A stretch of 64,000 nucleotides of DNA from an uncultured Bifidobacteriaceae bacterium (GCA_964458575.1 CAYWMD010000027.1:20642-84641), one strand, 5' to 3'; counted from the first letter of the stretch, positions 24,501-34,355 are shown. Notes: generated by a model from the sequence alone, not told the origin. Made by a program: numbers and translations.

Positions 24501-25325
24501 CTATTTCTTGTATTTGGAGAAGACCGGCATTTTTTTGAATTTGGCTAGCGGGTCTTCTTTCCCAATCAGGGCGGATGGACGCGTGGCCGGATTTTCCACG
24601 TCGTCAGCAGGTTCGGCGTCCGTTGCGGCAGGTGAAACACCGCCCGGTGGCGACGCCTGCGCGACCACATGCGCGGCGACCGGTGCGGACTGCACTGATC
24701 GTTTCTCGAAAAATGAGCTTTGAGTAAAACCAGCTTGCGGCGCCACAGGTGCCGCGACTGACGGCGGGGCGGGCATTGGCTTCGATTGCGCGACCTCCGC
24801 TGCTTTGATTTCAGTCGTCCGCCAACAGAGCCGCACGGAAGGAATTGGGCCAACACCGACGGCCACTTCGCTGTAAACCAAATCCCCGAGTTCCACGGTA
24901 TCCGCCATTTGCCCGGCCTGTAGCAACGAGGATAAAATCGCGCGTGTCGTCCGCCGTTGTTGGTTCGCCTGCAACAACGACCGCAACACCGACGTATGCA
25001 CGTCGTCAATCTTCGTCAGATGCACCAACAGGCGTTGCACGGGGCTGATTTCCAAATCCATGCCGCTGAGTTTGAAGCCGGCTTTGGCAAGCACATCCAC
25101 GCTACTGTGAATCTCCGCCAGCGCCCCGCTGAGGCGATCTTCCTGGTCCGCCTTCAAATCGGCGACGCTGTATTGAATCTCCGATTTGAGTTGCTGCAAC
25201 TGGCCCGTCGTTGCGGCAACTGTGTCGCGTACGTCCGCTATTTTTGGCGGAAGCTGCTGCATCGCCGCTTTGATCTCGGCGGCTTTCTGACTCAGGTTCT
25301 TCACTTTGCTGATAAACTGCTTCAT
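24501..25325 (-). CDS. Hypothetical coiled-coil / Pro-Ala-rich protein (last gene of the SPFH-ATPase cluster)
   Basis: Start re-placed at the ATG 25325 (MKQFISKVKNL). RBS GAGGAG lies 5 nt upstream and 10 bp after the stop of the giant ATPase gene. N-terminal heptad-rich region and C-terminal PAPPSVAAPVAPQ low-complexity region. No recognised domain. Confidence 0.55.
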   Translation of the reverse strand: MKQFISKVKNLSQKAAEIKAAMQQLPPKIADVRDTVAATTGQLQQLKSEIQYSVADLKADQEDRLSGALAEIHSSVDVLAKAGFKLSGMDLEISPVQRLLVHLTKIDDVHTSVLRSLLQANQQRRTTRAILSSLLQAGQMADTVELGDLVYSEVAVGVGPIPSVRLCWRTTEIKAAEVAQSKPMPAPPSVAAPVAPQAGFTQSSFFEKRSVQSAPVAAHVVAQASPPGGVSPAATDAEPADDVENPATRPSALIGKEDPLAKFKKMPVFSKYKK

Positions 25326-25335
25326 AACGTTCTCC

Positions 25336-28300
25336 TCATTTCTGCTCCGGCGGCGGTTCTCCACTTTGCGCGGCTTCACGCTGTTTCTGCGCCTCGGCAA
25401 TTGCTTTCTGGAATTGTTCGAGGAACGCCCCTTCGTTACTCAACATCTCTTGGGTGACATCAATCTCCAACGAACCTTGTTTGGCACGAGTCTCCAGCAA
25501 CTCTTGAGACTTGTGTAAATGATCCCGCTGCCGCCCCGCCATGTCCTTCAACGTCGCCAGCGTGCTGTGGACCATCTCCATCTCGTGCTCCATCCGCTTC
25601 ATGGCATCCGCCATCGTGCCGGTGTGAACAACCGAAATCGCCTGGCTCAAATCCTGGCGCAACGCGCTCAATCCCTCACCCAGCTTCGCAGCCAGTGCAT
25701 TGAAATCGCCGTGGCCGTTATCGTCCTTCTTGGCCGGTTGCGCCAGGCGTTGATCAACGGTGTTGCGCAAGGCTTCGAGGTTCGCCGCCAATGGCGCGAG
25801 ATCAATCGTCACGTTCGGCGGCGGTTGGACCGGCTGCGGCCTGGCGGCCTGCTTTTCCAACGTCGCCTGTAAAGCTTCGAGCCCCTTGCCCACGGGTGAC
25901 ATGTCCACCACGACCTGCGGCGCGGCTTGGGGCTTTGCCGATTGTTTGTCCACCGCCGCTTGCAGTGCCTCCAGGCTCTTACCCACCGGCGTCATGTCCA
26001 CATTGACCTGCGGAGGTGGTGGCGGCGGCTTGGCCAACTGGTCGGAGATGATCTTCTGAATGCCTTCCAATCCGGACTGAAATCCGCTCAACTGCGCCAC
26101 GATGCGTCCGGCCGGATCGTGATCCCCGCCCGCGCCCCGTGCCGCCGTGTTGTGTTTGAAGGTCTTCTTGATCTCCTCCCAACGTGATTTTTCCTCTGCT
26201 GTCTGAACGCCGATCAGTTCCCGGAACTTGAGCATGTTCGCTTCCGTGCCCGTCGTGAGCGTCTGCGACTCGCCGCGGTAGTGATCGAGGATGAGCGCGC
26301 GCATCTCGTCATCGTTCATGATCGTGACGACTTTTTCCGCGAGGCGGTTCATGTTGCGATACGATCCCTGCAACCGGAACGGCGGCTCGACGCGGAACTC
26401 ATCCGCCTGAGCAGCGGAGTAGATGTATTCTTGGTTCACGCGCAAGATGACCTCGCGAGTCATCACGAGCTTCTTCATCACCGACAAAATCTCTTCCACT
26501 TCCTGTGACGAATAACTGCCCTCGAACCCTTCCGCCTCGCGCTCGCCGGATTCCGCCATGCGGATGAACGAGCGAATGTCCTTCTGACTCTTGTTCGCCA
26601 GCGGCGCCAGCACGGCGTTCGACGTCACGGCGTTTTCGAGATAGCTCGCTTTGAAATAATCCGCTTTGCCGCCGATGATGTCGCCGAGATTGTAGGTGTC
26701 GGCACGGTTCGCGAGCATGTCCGGGATTTTGAACTTCTGCCCGCTCTCGGTGTAAGGATTGCCCGCCATCACGACCACGACCTTGCGTCCGCGCAAATCG
26801 TAAGTGCGCGGTTTCCCGCGCCAGACGCCTTCGATGCGGCGCTGCCCGTCGCAGAGCGAAATGAACTTCTGCAAAAACTCCGGGTTGCAATGCTGGATAT
26901 CGTCCACGCAGATCATCGCGTTGTCGCCCATCTCCAGCGCGAGGTTCAGCTTGATGATTTCCTCACGCGCGGCGGCGTTCGGCGCTTCTTCCGGATCGAG
27001 CGACACGACATTGTGGCCGAGCGCCGGGCCGTTGATCTTGATGAAGATGATGCCCAACCGGCTCGCAACATATTCCATCAACGTCGTCTTGCCGTAACCG
27101 GGCGGCGAAATGATGAGCAGCAAACCCATCAAGTCTGTGCGCTTGGCTGCGCCCGCCGCGCCGATTTGCTTGGCGAGATTGTCGCCGACCATCGGGAGAT
27201 AAATCTGGTCAATGAGCTGATTGCGCACGAACGACGTCAGCACCTTGGGCTTGAATTCATCGAGTCGCAGCTTGGCGCGTTCGCGTTCGATCAACTGTTG
27301 CTTCAGCGCGTGGAACTTTTCAAAACGCGGGACGACGTCGCGCTCAAATTTCTGGAGGCGATCCTGGAAGTTCAGGTAATCGAACTGATACTTGCTGCCT
27401 TGAATGAGCGCGTGATTCCCGCGCATGCCTTCGATTACCCGCGACGTTGCGGCCTTGACCACGGACCGCTTGAGTGCGTCACCACAAAAGAGAATGGCAG
27501 AGATTTCGTCGAGATAGCGGAACTGGTGGGTCGAGTCGCGCTGCGACTCGACGTCCGGTCGCAGCGCGACCGGACCTACCTGCAGAAAGCCCCGCACCCA
27601 GTCGCGCACCAAATCCAGTTCGCTGCCGGGATGTTCAGCGAGCGCCTCTCGCCGCTGCTCGAAAGCTTTCTCGCTGCCTTTGCTGGCGAGATGCCGGTTG
27701 AACGACGCCACCAGTCCCTCCGCCTCCTGACTGACGGAAACCGCCTCGCCCGTGATCAGTTCGTTGAAAAGGTACTCGCCTGCTTCATTCGCAGTTGCCG
27801 GCGGATAAAGCTTGGTTTGCTCGACGAACGCGGCAATCAAACCTTGCAGCGCGGCGATGTAGTTCTGCTGCGTCGGATCGCCGGGGAACAGCTTGTTGCG
27901 CTCGGCAAAGGCATCGAGCTTGGCCGACCACAGCGTCTTCGTTTCCGCCGGGCAGAAGCGATTCCAATAAACCACCGCACAGGCCCGCGCTGCCGGACTG
28001 AACCGCGCCAGTTGCAGCGCGTGATGGGTCGTGAGCAGCGCGTGGAAAATCTTCGCACCGTCCAGATCGTGAATGCCCTTGGTGTAACCTTCCTGATAAC
28101 GCGCGCCCATAAACTCCTGCACGAACGCAAGGCGTTTGTCTTCCGAGAATGCGAGCGCTTCCGCCAAGCTCGGAGCGCCGAGCACCGGCTCGGCTCGCAC
28201 TGAGCTGTTGGAACGGGCCGAGCTGGTGCTGGGCGCTCCTATCGCCTTCAACATCTGCCACGCCAGATATTCAGCACGATACACCTCGCGGTTCTCGGAC

Positions 28301-31092
28301 ACGACTTCCTGATCCCACACATCGCGCGTGGCCAGGAATGCCTCGTCCGTAATCGCCTCGAAATACTTGGTGCTCGTCAGGTGGATATGCTGCACGCCGT
28401 CGCGGTTGACCACCGTGAGTTCAAGGGGCTGCGTGTTGATGTTGAAATGATGCTTGCCGAGTTTGATGACATCCTGCCCACCAACAAACAACTCCTGCCG
28501 ATCCTTCAACTGCCGCACGGCTTCCTGCTGCGTGCCTTTGAGGCGACCTTGCAGATCGTCGGCCTTCACCGAATCGCCCAGCGCGAGCAGTTGCTCAATC
28601 GTCTCGCGGACCTTGGCGATCATCAGGTCCGACGCCATGTAGCTATTGATATCCTCGATGCTCTTGAACCCGGCGAGGCGATTTTGAATCACCTTGAGGA
28701 TGCGCTCGGCGGCGGTCAGCAACGCGCTGGCCTTGCGATTGCGCTGTTCGACGAGTGCGACCTTGCGCTGCTCGAACGCCTCGTAAAGTTCCGTCCGTCG
28801 CTCGGCGAGTTGCACCGTGTATTCTTCGAAATCGGCGAACGTGCCTTCCAGTTCCTCAAGCTGAACGGAGAGGCGGTTCAAATACTCCTCGCACTTGGCG
28901 GGCGAATCGCACAGGTCGAGATAGCTCGACGCGGCTTGACCGAGCAACTTCATCTGCGCGCCAAACTGCGCCGCGCCTTCGCTGGCGATGAGATGTTGCA
29001 GGCGTTTCTTGAGCGCGGCCTTGACCTGATTGAGCGTGGAATAAACCGCCGTGATCGCGTCAATGATCCGCGTCGTCTCGGTCGCGTCCTCGATCTTCAG
29101 ACTGTTGACGATCTCGATGAGCATTTCGAGTTCGCCGCCCGCGACGGTGACGGCCTTCTCGATTTCCTTTCCCTCCGCAACCTTCGTCACGCGATCCACC
29201 GCCGTGAGATGATCGGCTGCCTGTCGGCGATAAGGCTCAAGCGACTCGGGCTTGAGAAGAAACTTCACGCAGGAATTGGAAAGCTCGTCGGTCTGTGTCG
29301 CGACCTGCTTTTCTGCTTCGTCAATTTGCGCGAGGTCAACGTAGCGGACTTCCCTGAGCGTGATGAGTTCACCGCGAAGCTTTCGGAGCGAAGCAAGGTT
29401 GAGAACAAAGTCATTCAGCACGCGGAAGCTGGCACGGCGGATGTTCTGAAACTGATCGGTGCAACGCTTGCGCACGTCTTTCACGCGCTCGACGGCCTCG
29501 CGTTGCAGGCGGCGCACCTTGTCGAATTCGTCCACGGCCTTGTCCGCCGCCTCGCGCACGGCGCGCAACGCACCATCCACGCCGAAGCCCTCCGCACTCG
29601 ACAGCCACGGATAGGAATCGAGAATCGCGCCGCAGCGTTTGACGAGGTCGGTGTAAATCTGCGCGTAGGGATTTTCCTTTCGCACCAGTGTCATCACCTC
29701 GTTGCACTCGGCGAGACAGCGCACGACTTCCTTGTTGCCGACCTGATACAGAAACGCGTCCTTCTTGCCGGCGGGTTCGAAGTCGGGCTGATGGAACGGC
29801 GTCTGCCGCAGTTGAATCATGTGATGCTTCTGCGGCTCGGCTTCGGCGCGGAACACGAGCAGGTGGCCGTTGGGGAACAGGGAATAACCCGGGCACCCAA
29901 TGCGCTCCTCGACCTTTTGCGCAATCAACCGATACGGCAGCAAGGCGTAATCGCCGGTCAAGCGATTGTAAAAGACATAGAGCACGTCTTCGCCGTTCGG
30001 CGCGTAGATGACGCGCTCGATGACCATCGGGCCGTCTTTGGACTCGAACTGTTTCAGTTCACCCGTTGCGAGGTAATAACCATCGGGAAAGATAAGCCCG
30101 TGTTCCTCGGGCAGGAAGACACACGACTGGCCGAGCGAATCCACGCGCAGCGCCGATTGCGTCTTCTCGTTGAAAATGAAAAAGCGCGGGGTGTTTTCCT
30201 TGTAGGGCCGGATCTTGAGCAGGATGAGGTGGTTGACAATCGCGTAGGCGATTTCGGCGTCGTCCACCTTTTGGTACTTGTCGTCCACCGGTTCGGCGTA
30301 GATGCCTTCGCCCGTCGCGGTGCTGTCTTCGACCTTGATCGTCAGGTCGCCACCGATGCACTCGACAAACACGCGGTCTTCAATCGAGATGTGCGGATAA
30401 TCGCCGTAGCGGTAGGACTCGCGGTCAGGCGTCAGCCAGCGAAACTCGAACTGCGGTGGGAAACCGACCTTGCGGAATTCGGCTTCGCTGCGGCCGTCGA
30501 GGTATTTCAGGTTGCCCTCGTTGTAAGCCCACTTGAAAACCGCGATGTCATTGATGCCCGGGCCGGTCGAGAACACCATGTAGAGTCTGCCCTCGATGAC
30601 CGAGAACTTCTGGAACGACGCCTTTTCGTAAACGTTGTAGAGCCGTTTGAAGTCCGTGATGAACGTCTTGTCCTGCAACCCGGCGAGGTCGGCTTCCTTG
30701 AACGTGCCGGCCTGGTCATCACGATGGTAGATGGCGAACACGTCGCCCAACTCAATCTCCTTCTTGAGACCAAACTGCACATTGAAGCCAAAGAGAAAGC
30801 GGCCCGAGCCCAACTGCACCATGTCCGCCGGAATGCAGTTGTGGGCGGTGATGATGCGGTCGGCCTGGAGCAGCTTGAATTCAATCGTGCCGAACACCTC
30901 CGCGCGCCGCGCGTTGAGCTGGCTCATGCACTCGCGCAACGTCGCGCCCTGCGTGTTCAGCCGCTGGCGGATGATCTCGTAAGTCGCGCTGCCAAGCGTC
31001 TGCGCGGTGGACGGCGCGGCGGCGGCCTCAGGCGCGGGTGCGGGTGCGCCTTCAGGCTGCGGGGCGGGTTTGGTTTCTGGGGCTTCAGCCAT
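25336..31092 (-). CDS. Giant (1918 aa) protein with a single MoxR/dynein-type AAA_5 ATPase domain
   Basis: Walker A LLIISPPGYGKTTL. Walker B AMICVDDIQHCNPEFL. Sensor VVVVMAGNPY. All lie around residues 1230-1400. About 1200 aa of unrecognised mostly helical sequence precede them. C-terminal coiled-coil region with three tandem 27-aa repeats. Confidence 0.8.
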   Translation of the reverse strand: MAEAPETKPAPQPEGAPAPAPEAAAAPSTAQTLGSATYEIIRQRLNTQGATLRECMSQLNARRAEVFGTIEFKLLQADRIITAHNCIPADMVQLGSGRFLFGFNVQFGLKKEIELGDVFAIYHRDDQAGTFKEADLAGLQDKTFITDFKRLYNVYEKASFQKFSVIEGRLYMVFSTGPGINDIAVFKWAYNEGNLKYLDGRSEAEFRKVGFPPQFEFRWLTPDRESYRYGDYPHISIEDRVFVECIGGDLTIKVEDSTATGEGIYAEPVDDKYQKVDDAEIAYAIVNHLILLKIRPYKENTPRFFIFNEKTQSALRVDSLGQSCVFLPEEHGLIFPDGYYLATGELKQFESKDGPMVIERVIYAPNGEDVLYVFYNRLTGDYALLPYRLIAQKVEERIGCPGYSLFPNGHLLVFRAEAEPQKHHMIQLRQTPFHQPDFEPAGKKDAFLYQVGNKEVVRCLAECNEVMTLVRKENPYAQIYTDLVKRCGAILDSYPWLSSAEGFGVDGALRAVREAADKAVDEFDKVRRLQREAVERVKDVRKRCTDQFQNIRRASFRVLNDFVLNLASLRKLRGELITLREVRYVDLAQIDEAEKQVATQTDELSNSCVKFLLKPESLEPYRRQAADHLTAVDRVTKVAEGKEIEKAVTVAGGELEMLIEIVNSLKIEDATETTRIIDAITAVYSTLNQVKAALKKRLQHLIASEGAAQFGAQMKLLGQAASSYLDLCDSPAKCEEYLNRLSVQLEELEGTFADFEEYTVQLAERRTELYEAFEQRKVALVEQRNRKASALLTAAERILKVIQNRLAGFKSIEDINSYMASDLMIAKVRETIEQLLALGDSVKADDLQGRLKGTQQEAVRQLKDRQELFVGGQDVIKLGKHHFNINTQPLELTVVNRDGVQHIHLTSTKYFEAITDEAFLATRDVWDQEVVSENREVYRAEYLAWQMLKAIGAPSTSSARSNSSVRAEPVLGAPSLAEALAFSEDKRLAFVQEFMGARYQEGYTKGIHDLDGAKIFHALLTTHHALQLARFSPAARACAVVYWNRFCPAETKTLWSAKLDAFAERNKLFPGDPTQQNYIAALQGLIAAFVEQTKLYPPATANEAGEYLFNELITGEAVSVSQEAEGLVASFNRHLASKGSEKAFEQRREALAEHPGSELDLVRDWVRGFLQVGPVALRPDVESQRDSTHQFRYLDEISAILFCGDALKRSVVKAATSRVIEGMRGNHALIQGSKYQFDYLNFQDRLQKFERDVVPRFEKFHALKQQLIERERAKLRLDEFKPKVLTSFVRNQLIDQIYLPMVGDNLAKQIGAAGAAKRTDLMGLLLIISPPGYGKTTLMEYVASRLGIIFIKINGPALGHNVVSLDPEEAPNAAAREEIIKLNLALEMGDNAMICVDDIQHCNPEFLQKFISLCDGQRRIEGVWRGKPRTYDLRGRKVVVVMAGNPYTESGQKFKIPDMLANRADTYNLGDIIGGKADYFKASYLENAVTSNAVLAPLANKSQKDIRSFIRMAESGEREAEGFEGSYSSQEVEEILSVMKKLVMTREVILRVNQEYIYSAAQADEFRVEPPFRLQGSYRNMNRLAEKVVTIMNDDEMRALILDHYRGESQTLTTGTEANMLKFRELIGVQTAEEKSRWEEIKKTFKHNTAARGAGGDHDPAGRIVAQLSGFQSGLEGIQKIISDQLAKPPPPPPQVNVDMTPVGKSLEALQAAVDKQSAKPQAAPQVVVDMSPVGKGLEALQATLEKQAARPQPVQPPPNVTIDLAPLAANLEALRNTVDQRLAQPAKKDDNGHGDFNALAAKLGEGLSALRQDLSQAISVVHTGTMADAMKRMEHEMEMVHSTLATLKDMAGRQRDHLHKSQELLETRAKQGSLEIDVTQEMLSNEGAFLEQFQKAIAEAQKQREAAQSGEPPPEQK
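25775..26035 (-). repeat. Tandem 81-bp (27-aa) coding repeats x3 in the giant ATPase C-terminus
   Basis: Protein QVNVDMTPVGKSLEALQAAVDKQSAKPQ / QVVVDMSPVGKGLEALQATLEKQAARPQ / NVTIDLAPLAANLEALRNTVDQRLAQP. The DNA repeats are visible directly (gtccaccgccgcttgcagtgcctccaggctcttacccaccggcgtcatgtccac ...). Confidence 0.5.
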
Positions 31093-31095
31093 TGC

Positions 31096-31899
31096 CTAAT
31101 TCCAGTTCAAAAAGCTTTGGGCTACTGCCTTTGAAAAAACTTCGGGTGACCAGCCGACTAAATCGGAAACCTGACCGTCGCCGATCTCCACAATCCGCAG
31201 CGTGCCGTCAGTTCGCTGGATCACGTCTGTAGAAAAGAATCTGCTCTTCACGCGGCTGGCGCACTGATGGACAATTTCGGGAACTTCGCCGATAGGTGCG
31301 CGTGGCTGGCCATTGAACACAAAGTACCGTCGCTCTGTGTCGGGCCGAAAGTCTTCCACCCGGCGTACGCAGAAGCCTCCTTCGATTGTGCCTCGGTAAC
31401 GTCGCATTTCGGAAACAACTACCTCGACAGCCTCGGGCTTCGATATGCGCGAGCCGACTGAAGTCTTGAGAGACTTCACATAATCCTTGATGAAGTATTC
31501 GCTCCATCCCAGTACTTTCAACTCTTTCGCCAAGTCGCAATCCGCCGGATACACTTTCGTCTCTGGAGTGAATTCACTCACGAGCGGATACCAGTTCGGC
31601 AAATAGTGACAGGCAAGATAATTGGTCGTGTCGCTCACAGGCTGGCAGCCTGTGCTGTGAATTGCCGCAACCAAAGATGTGTATTCGTCCTTTGAAAGCA
31701 TCCAGCCTCGATAAAGAACCTTGGCGCCAGTCGGAAGCGGCGGGCTGGCTTTGAAATCACCAGCCTGGAAAGCCTCCACGGAGAAAAGCGATGTTTCAAA
31801 GCCTTCGCTCCGCACCGCTTCCACCTCGGCCTGATAGTGTTCGTCCGGCTGGCGTGGCCGCAGCGGACTGCTTGGGTAAAGCAAATGCATTTGTCGCAA
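31096..31899 (-). CDS. Putative ATP-grasp enzyme (RimK-related, R2K/DUF4343-like)
   Basis: 267 aa. Candidate ATP-binding Lys in YFIKDYVKS. C-terminal Mg/ATP-site-like TLRIVEIGDGQVSD, which fits the ATP-grasp E-x-N/D region. The fold assignment is from motif memory, not a search. Its stop is 4 bp before the giant ATPase start. Confidence 0.55.
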   Translation of the reverse strand: MRQMHLLYPSSPLRPRQPDEHYQAEVEAVRSEGFETSLFSVEAFQAGDFKASPPLPTGAKVLYRGWMLSKDEYTSLVAAIHSTGCQPVSDTTNYLACHYLPNWYPLVSEFTPETKVYPADCDLAKELKVLGWSEYFIKDYVKSLKTSVGSRISKPEAVEVVVSEMRRYRGTIEGGFCVRRVEDFRPDTERRYFVFNGQPRAPIGEVPEIVHQCASRVKSRFFSTDVIQRTDGTLRIVEIGDGQVSDLVGWSPEVFSKAVAQSFLNWN

Positions 31900-31908
31900 G
31901 CATTCGCG

Positions 31909-34149
31909 TTACGCTTTGGCCGTCGTCTTGTCTGACAACACCGCCGATGCCATCACGTCGGACAAGCCGCTTTCTTTCGCCATCGCGTGTGCTGACTTTA
32001 GTAACGATTGCAGCCCGCTGTCCTTGGACGACGCGATCATTTTTCCGAGCAACGCGGCGACGGTCAGGTTCTTCAGGTCCTCGGTCTTGATGCCGAAATC
32101 CTTCACCCATTGCGCGAGCTGCGATTTGAAGAAGTCCGGGTCGCCGTTGAAGAACGTGTTCTTGATGTCGGACAACGTCTCGCTGTTGTTGACCATGCGA
32201 TCCACGGATTTCCCGTTGCCCACGGCGCGGACGATCTTCTCGAAGAAGTCGTTTTCACCACCGACGATGTCAATCTTGGCGGCCTTGAGCGCTTCCCCGA
32301 CAACTTCCGAGTGCGCGCGAGCGATGTCGCGATTGACGTTGATGGCCGCGAGTTCGACGTCGCGTTCCTTGGCAAGTTTGAGGCGGAATTCCTCGTGTTG
32401 CTGGCCGGCCTCGTGCAGAAGTTTCATCGCCTTCGCTTTTTCCTCGATGCCCTTCGCTTCGGCGAGCATCTTGGCCTGGATGCCGGTAGCAGTAGCCATT
32501 TCCTTGTCCTTCGTGCCTTCGGCTTCGGCTTCGGCTTGAGTCTGGGTGACCTTGGCGTGAGCATCGCCCTTGACCTGCTCCACTTCGGCCTCGGCGATGC
32601 CAACGGCTTTGATGGCTTCGGCATCGGCCTTCTTCGCGCTCGCCTTGGCAGTGATAACCTTGGCCTCGGCGAGTCCTTTCGCGGCTTCTTGCGCGGCGAC
32701 GCCTTCAGCTTCCTGCTCCATCGCAATGCGCTTCTTCTCGCTGGCCTTGGCTTCGGCGTCGGCAATCGTCTGAATCCGTTCCGATTCGCGCAAGGCAGCT
32801 TCCCGCCCCGCCTCGGCGGCGGTGACGGTTTTTATCTTATTGGCCTCGGCGAGGTTGCGATCCGCCTCCTTTTGCGCTTCGGCGGCAACGACCTTTTCAA
32901 CCTGCGCCTGCTTGGCGTTCATGTCCGCCTCAATGAGCGTGACTTCGCGGACGCGCTCGGCGGTCATACGGGCTTCGATGTTGGTCTTCTCCTCCTGCTG
33001 CTGCACGACGGCCTTTTGTTCAGCCACGACCACAGCGCGTTTGCGTTCCACCTCCACGGCGGCCTCGGCCACTTTGACTTCCTTGTCCATCTCAGCCAAT
33101 GAAACAGAACGTTCGCGGCGCACGCGGGCTTCCTCACCTTCTTGAACCGCTTCCTGTTCAAGGCGCTGTTTTTCCTTGCGGACCGTGAATTCGCGCTCCT
33201 GCACGGCGCGGTTCATATCCTGCGTGCGCAGCTGAATGGCTTCCTCGGCCTCCAATCGCTTGCCCTCCACTTCCTGCCGCCGGGCCTCGATGACCTTGCG
33301 GGCTTCGGCCTCTTCGTTGGCCTTGATCTCGGTAACGGCGCGCGTCTGTTTGGCGGTGTCTTCCTCGTTGCGACGCTTCTGTTCGCGCTTGGCGATGTCC
33401 GCGTCGGCGTTTTCCTTCTCCACCTGCACCTGGGCGCGCTGGGTGAATTCGTTGGCCACCACGCGTTCGCGCTGGGTGATCTCGGTGATTTTCTTGATGC
33501 CTTCGGAATCAAGGACGTTGTTGGGATCATGCTGATCGAGCGGGGTTTGTTCCAAATAATCAATCGCCACGTCCTGAAGCAGAAAACCGTCGAGGTCCTT
33601 GCCGATGGTGGCTTGAATCTGGTCGCGGAACTTGATGCGTTCGGTGAACAGTTCGTGGAATTCCATCTGCTTGCCCGCGGTCTTGAGCGCCTCCGAGAAT
33701 TTCGCCTCAAACAACTCGCGCAACTGCTCGATATCCGCCACGCGTTCCGGGGTCAACATCTGGGCCACTTTGCGGACGCTTTCCTCGGTGGCCTCGACGC
33801 GGATGTAAAAGGCCACGGTGATGTCGGCGCGGATGTTGTCCTTGCAGACGAGACCATCCTTGCCTTTGCGCGCGATCTCGAGCTTCTTCACCGAGATGTC
33901 CACGATGTGGTAATTCTGCAGGACGGGGAAACGCAGCATGTAGTCGAAGGACACGCGCAACCCGCCCATGCCGGTGGTAACGCCGGCGCGTCCGGGTTGG
34001 ATCTTGCGGATGCAGATGCCGATGATGGCAACGGCGACCAGGCAGATGACAATGAGCAGGGCAATGAGCAGATAGGTGAGCATAGGATGTAATCGGTTGT
34101 ATATTATCACCAACGCCGCGCGAGTCACCCTGTCAACCAGAGCGTCCAT
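31909..34149 (-). CDS. SPFH/Band-7 flotillin-like protein (YqiK-like) with very long charged helical region
   Basis: N-terminal TM LLIALLIVICLVAVAIIGI. SPFH core VSFDYMLRFPVLQNYHIVDISVKKLEIARKGKDGLVCKDNIRADITVAFYIRV. Then about 400 aa of E/A/K/R-rich heptad sequence and a C-terminal flotillin tail. Confidence 0.85.
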   Translation of the reverse strand: MDALVDRVTRAALVIIYNRLHPMLTYLLIALLIVICLVAVAIIGICIRKIQPGRAGVTTGMGGLRVSFDYMLRFPVLQNYHIVDISVKKLEIARKGKDGLVCKDNIRADITVAFYIRVEATEESVRKVAQMLTPERVADIEQLRELFEAKFSEALKTAGKQMEFHELFTERIKFRDQIQATIGKDLDGFLLQDVAIDYLEQTPLDQHDPNNVLDSEGIKKITEITQRERVVANEFTQRAQVQVEKENADADIAKREQKRRNEEDTAKQTRAVTEIKANEEAEARKVIEARRQEVEGKRLEAEEAIQLRTQDMNRAVQEREFTVRKEKQRLEQEAVQEGEEARVRRERSVSLAEMDKEVKVAEAAVEVERKRAVVVAEQKAVVQQQEEKTNIEARMTAERVREVTLIEADMNAKQAQVEKVVAAEAQKEADRNLAEANKIKTVTAAEAGREAALRESERIQTIADAEAKASEKKRIAMEQEAEGVAAQEAAKGLAEAKVITAKASAKKADAEAIKAVGIAEAEVEQVKGDAHAKVTQTQAEAEAEGTKDKEMATATGIQAKMLAEAKGIEEKAKAMKLLHEAGQQHEEFRLKLAKERDVELAAINVNRDIARAHSEVVGEALKAAKIDIVGGENDFFEKIVRAVGNGKSVDRMVNNSETLSDIKNTFFNGDPDFFKSQLAQWVKDFGIKTEDLKNLTVAALLGKMIASSKDSGLQSLLKSAHAMAKESGLSDVMASAVLSDKTTAKA

Positions 34150-34355
34150 ACCTCAGCATCACGCAACGTCCAGAACTGCCCAGTGGTTATCAGAACACCG
34201 AAATCCTTGCCAATACAATTCCGGCCAAAGTTTACAATGGGCCATCGGTCCTGGCGAGCCGCCGGGAAAGTTTGAATGCCAGGCGCCGTTGCTGCGTCGG
34301 GTGTTTGTCTCCGCGACAACGCGGTTGCGGAACATCCACACGCGAACTCCAGCGA

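Follow-up and report, generated by a model that had tools for sequence, protein, structure and literature searches.

The locus considered here lies at positions 24,501 to 34,149 of a 64,000-nucleotide stretch of DNA (the window) recorded under an uncultured Bifidobacteriaceae bacterium (GCA_964458575.1, CAYWMD010000027.1:20642-84641), and it consists of four closely packed genes on the minus strand, encoding a flotillin, an ATP-grasp ligase, a giant ATPase and a smaller partner protein. Comparison of gene order and protein sequences has shown this locus to be the Verrucomicrobial version of a widespread two-gene module, in which a YqiK-type flotillin gene is followed by the gene for an ATPase with a DUF3686–helical–AAA+ layout, accompanied in this case by gene 4. 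As judged from these comparisons, the cluster is genuine and conserved, and no chance juxtaposition. Of its four genes, two form a conserved pair, one is specific to the phylum and one is a passenger confined to a sub-clade; they do not make up one indivisible four-part machine. The four genes, together with the region preceding the first of them, are the following:

31909..34149, minus strand: gene 1, YqiK-type flotillin (SPFH), an open reading frame of 746 amino acids
31096..31890, minus strand: gene 2, R2K.3-family ATP-grasp amidoligase, 264 amino acids from ATG; an alternative TTG at 31899 gives 267 amino acids
25336..31092, minus strand: gene 3, DUF3686-family cytoplasmic ATPase, an open reading frame of 1918 amino acids
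24501..25325, minus strand: gene 4, partner protein specific to Verrucomicrobia, 274 amino acids from ATG
34150..34271, no strand assigned: divergent intergenic region 5' of gene 1, presumed promoter region from the layout of the open reading frames only

The ATG at 31890 was taken as the start of gene 2, as it is the one used by its homologues, and gene 4 was started where its homologues begin (MKQF); the TTG at 25400 of the mechanically delimited reading frame would overlap gene 3. A preliminary description of this DNA, made from the sequence alone, had rightly reported four tightly packed minus-strand reading frames, but the gaps that it gave (10, 4 and 10) are really 9 or 18, 3 and 10 nucleotides between successive genes. 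The G+C content over the block is unremarkable. Because a scan for consensus promoters and terminators found sites no more frequently than in shuffled sequence, the operon status relies only on spacing and synteny, from which we infer that the cluster is co-transcribed.

The flotillin, the giant ATPase and their pairing

Two sets of loci were compared with the window. The Verrucomicrobial survey included one genome per species, giving 80 loci, all of them Verrucomicrobiota by content, and a metagenome scan with a cross-phylum alignment provided 80 further loci from other phyla.

The TM (transmembrane), SPFH and helical regions of gene 1 are homologous to those of a bona fide flotillin, the E. 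coli protein YqiK ('flotillin family inner membrane protein'), with 32% identity over 454 amino acids in BLASTP (E = 3e-41) and a probability of 99.9% in hhalign (E = 2.9e-32). From the N- to the C-terminus, the protein comprises a single TM segment (residues ~24-47, with a 19-residue Kyte-Doolittle average of 3.48), an SPFH domain, a helical region of ~370 amino acids (residues 231-600) in which 65% of the residues are E, A, K, R or Q, and a conserved C-terminal domain. Thus, both the flotillin-like nature of this protein and its E/A/K/R-rich helical segment, estimated in the preliminary description at about 400 amino acids, have been borne out. No match to gene 1 was obtained in Pfam or NCBIfam at E <= 0.1, including Band_7 (PF01145) and Flot (PF15975), nor in PDB by single-sequence search, and a profile built from 16 gene 1 orthologues had as its sole PDB match the helical region of QmcA. 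The Pfam models miss the divergent branch to which gene 1 belongs; its homology to YqiK is nevertheless unambiguous at the sequence level. Among Verrucomicrobial loci gene 1 is mostly 71-90% identical (~48% in the most divergent pair, L054 and L075), and its identity to the flotillins encoded 5' of the ATPase in other phyla is 34-46%.

The resemblance of the window to the E. coli yqiJK and B. subtilis yuaFG (floT) operons lies in gene 1, whose homology to YqiK is clear and which shares the N-terminal TM, SPFH and helical layout of that protein. However, YqiK has 553 amino acids and gene 1 has 746, the helical region being far longer in the latter, and the E. coli operon contains YqiJ and lacks the ATPase, whereas the window contains the ATPase and lacks YqiJ.

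The giant protein encoded by gene 3, which has 3309 homologues at E <= 1e-10, can be divided as follows:

29611..30939, minus strand: DUF3686 domain (gene 3 residues 52-494; PF12458, E = 1.9e-162)
28996..29244, minus strand: DUF7902 (gene 3 residues 617-699), within a long helical middle (PF25472, E = 5.6e-23)
26653..27222, minus strand: AAA+ core (gene 3 residues 1291-1480; AAA_5 and AAA above Pfam cut-offs)
25339..26052, minus strand: Verrucomicrobia-specific C-terminal tail (gene 3 residues 1681-1918), defined by alignment and not conserved outside the phylum

A single recognisable module had been attributed to this protein in the preliminary description, and this has to be revised, since DUF3686 and DUF7902 are also present and proteins of five phyla are collinear with it over residues ~33-1680. 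Over this span, gene 3 is 36-48% identical to plasmid-encoded proteins of Bacteroidota, Actinomycetota, Deinococcota and Pseudomonadota (tblastn). The DUF3686 domain shows 38-49% identity across phyla and the AAA+ core 67-77% across five phyla, in which the motifs SPPGYGKT (Walker A), VDDIQH (Walker B), AGNPYTE and PDMLANRAD are invariant; on this evidence, the AAA+ domain is under very strong constraint. In every homologue compared, from five phyla, Walker B carries Asp-Asp and not the usual Asp-Glu. Among Verrucomicrobial loci gene 3 is mostly 60-88% identical, with only 52-56% in L054 and L075 and 90.8% in the nearest relative, L001. The DUF3686-containing part of the architecture has been described as beta-propeller repeats (PMC11237479); a search by sequence found no PDB relative of the N-terminal domain of gene 3. 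No hydrophobic segment was found in genes 2, 3 or 4.

The tail of gene 3 contains a repeat of ~30 amino acids (V.VD..P....LEAL) in three copies, followed by helices. L085, like the window, has three copies; L002, L004 and L013 have two and most of the remaining relatives a single one. At the DNA level the repeat is too diverged to be detected by Tandem Repeats Finder. The similarity of the tail to PspA (hhalign probability of 46%, PDB profile match with E = 0.0035) is of a generic, coiled-coil level.

The association of this ATPase with a flotillin is nearly universal. The flotillin gene lies directly 5' of the ATPase gene in all 56 Verrucomicrobial loci with enough upstream sequence and in 60 of 62 loci from other phyla; in the window, the R2K.3 gene is interposed between the two. 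In the other phyla a YqiJ-like gene is found 5' of the flotillin gene in 56 of 58 loci, and searches of the Verrucomicrobial loci and the window for YqiJ/YuaF (DUF1449), PspA and CesT/Tir detected none of them (tblastn, E <= 1e-3). From this distribution, YqiJ is a common accompaniment lying outside the two-gene core.

Two non-Verrucomicrobial ATPase loci carry no upstream flotillin. The ATPase gene is preceded by genes for an Rce1-like protease and a BCCT transporter in one of them (L142:4401-9829), and by AIM24 and Peptidase_M48 genes in the other (L145:2209-6295).

The ATPase is also encoded on plasmids of Hymenobacter, Streptomyces, Nonomuraea, Deinococcus, Proteus, Pseudomonas fluorescens (pQBR103), Halomonas, Vibrio and Photobacterium (tblastn). 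On the plasmids of Hymenobacter, Streptomyces and Deinococcus and on pQBR103 the gene order is a DUF1449/YqiJ-like gene, a flotillin/SPFH gene (640-720 amino acids) and the 'DNA repair ATPase'. This set is preceded in Hymenobacter by CesT/Tir and PspA, and in pQBR103 by PspA and a yjf-type polyamine module that includes a glutathionylspermidine-synthase-like ATP-grasp. Taken together, these sequence comparisons have shown that a flotillin and a giant soluble AAA+ protein have been inherited together in at least six phyla, with lineage-specific partners around them.

This pairing has already been described, without experiments, in a comparative-genomics study of PSP that deals with CesT/Tir–PspA operons that also contain a flotillin, a YqiJ/YuaF protein and the ATPase (PMC11237479, mSystems 2024), in which shortened forms with flotillin and YqiJ, and sometimes the ATPase, are reported as widespread and the gene order of Dokdonia donghaensis is given in a supplementary table. 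That order is the same as in the Hymenobacter plasmid locus, a match of architecture and synteny in which the Dokdonia sequence itself was not compared. The combination was thus not undescribed, as had been stated in the preliminary description, and the same layout exists in Hymenobacter, Pseudomonas pQBR103, Streptomyces and Deinococcus. In these PspA-associated operons (Dokdonia, PMC11237479; Hymenobacter sp. DG25B plasmid), as in the Verrucomicrobial loci, a flotillin protein with TM, SPFH and coiled-coil regions is encoded directly 5' of an ATPase of the same family, and over residues 33-1682 gene 3 shares 48% identity with the ATPase of Hymenobacter sp. DG25B. However, the Verrucomicrobial loci lack YqiJ/YuaF (DUF1449), PspA and the CesT/Tir chaperone, and add gene 4 and the repeat-bearing ATPase tail, with the R2K.3 ligase as a further addition in one sub-clade. 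Thus, the flotillin and the giant ATPase are already known as an uncharacterised neighbourhood, and three things are new: the Verrucomicrobial layout, which combines gene 4 and a repeat-bearing tail with the lack of YqiJ, PspA and CesT; the hot spot for insertions that separates the core genes; and the presence of an R2K.3 ligase there.

The yjfIJKLMC-type PspA/CesT and polyamine module (pQBR103; PMC11237479) also places an ATP-grasp amidoligase gene in an array with a flotillin and a DUF3686 ATPase. However, the pQBR103 ATP-grasp belongs to another family and is located upstream, with DUF350, DUF1190 and DUF2491, and not in the slot between flotillin and ATPase; those partners are absent from the window.

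The name that databases give to the ATPase deserves comment. It is called 'DNA repair ATPase' as an NCBI family and the Pfam entry for DUF3686 reads 'ATPase involved in DNA repair', which, together with weak RuvB_N and RuvB matches, would make gene 3 an enzyme acting on DNA whose adjacency to a flotillin is incidental. We consider this very improbable, taking into account the near-universal linkage to a membrane scaffold described above (56/56 and 60/62 loci) and the nature of the matches themselves: the score with NCBIfam RuvB is 21.8 bits where 282 are required, and it comes from no more than residues 1309-1360, and the PDB profile matches are confined to ~50 residues around Walker A. In addition, no nucleic-acid-binding or nuclease domain was found in gene 3 with Pfam, and the literature searched yielded neither a publication supporting the name nor one pairing a 'DNA repair ATPase' with a flotillin. 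From the sequence comparisons, the database name is almost certainly misleading, and the giant protein, as had been anticipated, belongs to no experimentally characterised family.

Gene 4, a partner restricted to Verrucomicrobia

The protein encoded by gene 4 consists of N-terminal helices, a small domain of beta-beta-alpha-alpha-beta-beta order (residues 84-170) that was modelled with confidence, a Pro/Ala linker that is disordered and bears an SSFFE motif, and a C-terminal motif that matches the family consensus RFKKMPDL (here DPLAKFKKMPVF). The coiled-coil and Pro/Ala-rich character noted in the preliminary description is therefore correct, and the modelled domain and the conserved linear motifs can now be added to it. 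The protein has no Pfam family and no structural neighbour in PDB, and its family is small (237 cluster representatives out of 1.84 billion, which all resemble one another in length). A relationship with PspA was considered and rejected: hhalign against E. coli PspA gives a probability of 0.1%, and the match to Pfam PspA_IM30, confined to residues 2-59, stays at 19.5 bits, below the cut-off of 33.9.

A homologue of gene 4, 26-62% identical among Verrucomicrobial loci, is found 3' of the ATPase gene in 49 of the 56 such loci with at least 1 kb of downstream sequence, two of them having it on the opposite strand, and in none of the 80 ATPase loci from other phyla. In the two most divergent Verrucomicrobial loci (L054:15539-16456 and L075:15537-16388), the homologue lies just past the ATPase gene on the opposite strand.

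With respect to the origin of these loci, several contigs that are plainly Verrucomicrobial (70-86% identity over the cluster) are titled Bifidobacteriaceae, Klebsiella, Hyphomicrobiales, etc. (L001, L012, L014, L017, L019, L043 and others). Judging by this content, the public taxon labels of those metagenome-assembled genomes are unreliable.

The slot between the core genes and its R2K.3 ligase

Gene 2 matches Pfam R2K_3 (PF14243) with 54.2 bits against a cut-off of 26.3 (E = 2.7e-14). The hallmarks of the R2K.3 family are two lysines in or after strand 2 of the RAGNYA fold, an arginine in kinase-like strand 1, a catalytic aspartate, and ExGD replacing ExN (Burroughs, Zhang and Aravind 2015, PMC4431377). 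Gene 2 shows them all, with the residues placed on strands by sequence position and not by structural overlay, and K135, K139/K142, R176, D222 and E235-I-G237-D238 are invariant among 26 homologues. Its AlphaFold2 model (pLDDT 88.1, pTM 0.84) gave 389 PDB matches at E <= 0.001 in Foldseek, the best of which were ArgX/LysX, PsnB, RimK and MdnC (E ~1e-10, TM-scores of 0.6-0.7). Sequence and structural model thus confirm the ATP-grasp assignment made earlier for the 267-amino acid protein, and gene 2 can be taken as a genuine R2K.3 ATP-grasp ligase with intact catalytic residues. Protein targets have been predicted for the family, no member of which has a substrate reported in the literature consulted, and the contexts published for it (GNAT acetyltransferases, R2K.2 and ADP-ribosylglycohydrolase) do not include one like this, with flotillin and DUF3686 ATPase genes on either side (PMC4431377).

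The ligase does not accompany the core pair in most genomes. An R2K.3 gene was found within 10 kb of the ATPase gene in none of the 80 Verrucomicrobial species-representative loci, even at E <= 10 (tblastn; the positive controls worked), and in none of the 80 loci from other phyla. It is missing even in the nearest relative (L001), and no remnant of it was detected in relatives without gene 2, either by tblastn at E <= 10 or by blastn with a word size of 7. In ten close relatives, DNA similarity to the window ends at the stop codon of gene 1 and restarts at the start codon of gene 3. Thus, the four genes do not behave as one syntenic unit, the test that had been fixed beforehand for their belonging together; the other three genes do stand together.

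The distance between the flotillin and ATPase genes is mostly below 300 nucleotides in Verrucomicrobial loci, and about a dozen of these contain inserts of very different kinds: IS200-like Y1 (RAYT-like) transposases in L017, L036, L037 and L043, long REP-like repeat arrays in L016 and L053, a SUKH-1 (SMI1/KNR4) protein in L010 (1420-2019), a TPR protein in L005, and unknown open reading frames in L043 and L079. SUKH-1 proteins are usually immunity proteins of polymorphic toxin systems. Since Y1 transposases and REP-like arrays occupy the slot in relatives, we regard it, on these sequences, as a hot spot for mobile elements and insertions.

The mobile elements of the slot lie at L016:8982-10025, L053:8338-10029, L017:896-1408, L036:9128-9580, L043:9218-9670 and L037:8830-9606. 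The REP-like arrays are read through as open reading frames with a recurring '...GPEGRK.VAHGVSRGW...PQRGDR...APLRGW...'.

The closest homologues of the ligase (86, 82, 79 and 69% identical) are all encoded in the same slot, 2-3 nucleotides 5' of the ATPase gene, on metagenomic contigs with differing outer flanks (L082/L083, L084, L100/L101 and L085/L086). These in-slot ligases are each other's nearest relatives, and in the ATPase tree every carrier is sister to a non-carrier (window–L001, L082–L043, L084–L036/L002 and L085–L058). The simplest history on these trees would be one insertion followed by repeated loss, or a cassette exchange by recombination through the conserved flanks; under either history, the ligase is, as far as its distribution tells, dispensable for the module.

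Homologues with identities of 66% or less lie outside the slot, in unrelated islands. One is found beside an integrase gene, Imm63 and a second R2K_3 gene, another near a Fic gene, another within an RtcB–RTC–Hen1–Pnkp RNA-repair array, others near HicA or PemK toxin genes, and others on Nostoc plasmids, near replication, partition and restriction genes. The large gene adjoining R2K.3 on one of these plasmids (L096) was compared with the module genes and rejected as a relative, being unrelated to gene 1 and gene 3.

Stand-alone Verrucomicrobial R2K.3 genes repeatedly adjoin an RNase_T/Rv2179c-like exonuclease gene (L089:8476-11161, L099:89-2107 and L098:5982-10057). Their co-neighbours include an unknown gene of ~222 amino acids (L089 and L099) and a Metallophos phosphoesterase gene (L089 and L098), and the L089 group lies just 3' of the RtcB–RTC–Hen1–Pnkp array. 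The native setting of the ligase may be this RNase_T-like/Metallophos neighbourhood, which could give a clue to the target on which it really acts.

It could be proposed, by analogy with RimK/S6 and LysX/LysW, that in this sub-lineage the ligase is a working part of the module, attaching amino acids to the product of gene 1, 3 or 4 and so tuning assembly, an idea close to the tagged, flotillin-scaffolded machine envisaged in the preliminary description. Several observations would agree with it: the gene is kept 2-3 nucleotides 5' of the ATPase start in at least five outer contexts (window, L082, L084, L085 and L100), it co-diverges with the ATPase (86/82/69% versus 86/88/76% identity in carriers), all its catalytic residues are invariant, its nearest structural neighbours (ArgX/LysX, RimK, PsnB and MdnC) act on proteins or peptides, protein targets are predicted for R2K.3 (PMC4431377), and another ATP-grasp, glutathionylspermidine-synthase-like, is linked to the same pair on pQBR103. 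Nevertheless, the ligase is missing from 80/80 species loci, including the closest relative (90.8% ATPase identity), and from 80/80 loci of other phyla, its slot is an insertion hot spot for unrelated genes, and homologues with 59-66% identity lie in unrelated islands. Moreover, carriers and non-carriers could not be told apart by the C-termini of genes 1, 3 and 4 or by anything else in the sequence of these genes. The constancy of its spacing lends the tagged machine some support, but its dispensability, its place in a hot spot and the setting of its more distant relatives weaken it, and a working role for the ligase is considered unlikely.

The exchangeable content of the slot could also be understood if the locus were an anti-phage or conflict system, in which the pair senses or aborts infection at the membrane and the slot holds effector or immunity cargo (R2K.3, SUKH). 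Several genera indeed carry the ATPase–flotillin pair on large plasmids. Depending on the genome, the slot can be occupied by an R2K.3 ligase, for whose family a part in conflicts between phages and their hosts has been proposed (PMC4431377), or by a SUKH-1 immunity-type protein, and stand-alone R2K.3 genes adjoin integrase, Imm63, Fic, HicA and PemK genes. However, PADLOC-DB returned no match for genes 1 and 2, only marginal ones for gene 4 (E >= 0.004), and low-scoring matches to the coiled-coil and P-loop regions of gene 3 (LmuB, E = 1.7e-5; Cas12d; mad8). Most slots are empty, and phage records yielded no homologue of the ligase. The neighbours of the four-gene block, on the opposite strand and unrelated to it, are housekeeping genes (DUF4838 upstream, and a GFO/IDH/MocA oxidoreductase and pheS downstream). 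Unlike patchy defence genes, the core is vertically conserved, with 60-90% identity throughout the phylum and a very highly conserved AAA+ domain. A defence function is thus regarded as improbable.

Proposed role and significance of the module

With moderate confidence, we consider the locus to be a flotillin-anchored AAA+ membrane-maintenance module, to which a lineage-specific adaptor and a dispensable ligase passenger have been joined. The flotillin would sit in the inner membrane, anchored there by the one TM segment at its N-terminus, and its long coiled coil would probably allow it, as with other SPFH proteins, to form a cage or patch facing the cytoplasm. To this assembly the soluble ATPase would be recruited, its N-terminal domain and helical arm binding the scaffold or a client, and its AAA+ ring would spend ATP to remodel, load or disassemble membrane-bound protein assemblies.

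Taking into account that PspA, CesT/Tir and YqiJ genes accompany the pair in other phyla, we propose a role in envelope stress or membrane maintenance for the module. The B. subtilis flotillin-family protein YdjI is reported to link PspA to the membrane, and such tethering speaks for flotillins and the PSP network being functionally connected. In Verrucomicrobia, where the YqiJ and PspA partners are missing, gene 4 may stand in their place; it would most plausibly be an adaptor or regulator, with a folded head, a long disordered tether and a terminal peptide docking on the ATPase or the flotillin. The ligase, whose activity is predicted from sequence and which is probably co-transcribed, would most likely be an accessory passenger with a target of its own and not a core subunit.

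This mechanism may be compared with that of HflK/C–FtsH, in which an SPFH scaffold is also paired with an AAA+ ATPase at the inner membrane, the cage of the former enclosing the latter. The comparison concerns only the way in which a flotillin and an AAA+ ring might work together; gene 3, unlike FtsH, has neither a protease domain nor a TM segment, and the two are unrelated beyond the AAA+ fold.

Several points weigh against this interpretation of the locus. The mechanism is built on analogy (HflK/C–FtsH and PspA/ESCRT-III–Vps4) and on gene neighbourhood alone, the PspA, CesT and YqiJ partners that motivate the envelope-stress view are absent from the Verrucomicrobial loci, and the roles of gene 4 and of the beta-propeller are proposals; gene 4 is itself missing from 7 of the 56 Verrucomicrobial loci with ample downstream sequence. 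Since Walker B reads Asp-Asp in all homologues, the chemistry of ATP turnover may be atypical. No experimental work on this ATPase family and no mention of DUF3686 or PF12458 were found in the literature searched. Finally, the spacing of the ligase gene in at least five backgrounds, together with catalytic residues preserved even where the identity of the linked ATPase has dropped to 76%, could mean that its function is tied to the module.

The flotillin–giant ATPase pair is present in at least six phyla, with an AAA+ core ~70% identical from one phylum to another, and over 3,300 close homologues were scored; the pair is nevertheless uncharacterised. The locus separates a core (flotillin and ATPase) from lineage-specific components (YqiJ, PspA and CesT elsewhere; gene 4 and the ATPase tail in Verrucomicrobia) and from an accessory one (the ligase), and this definition of the core shows which two proteins should be studied jointly, and in which tractable hosts. 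It seems improbable that in this sub-lineage the R2K.3 ligase has been recruited to put amino acid or peptide tags on one of the module proteins (the flotillin, the ATPase or, in its disordered tail, the gene 4 protein); if this were true, the tagged protein would be the first R2K.3 substrate, and the process a bacterial counterpart of tubulin- or S6-type tagging on a membrane scaffold. In any case, near-identical loci with and without an intact R2K.3 ligase constitute a natural experiment, offering matched genomes in which the substrate of R2K.3 could be sought.

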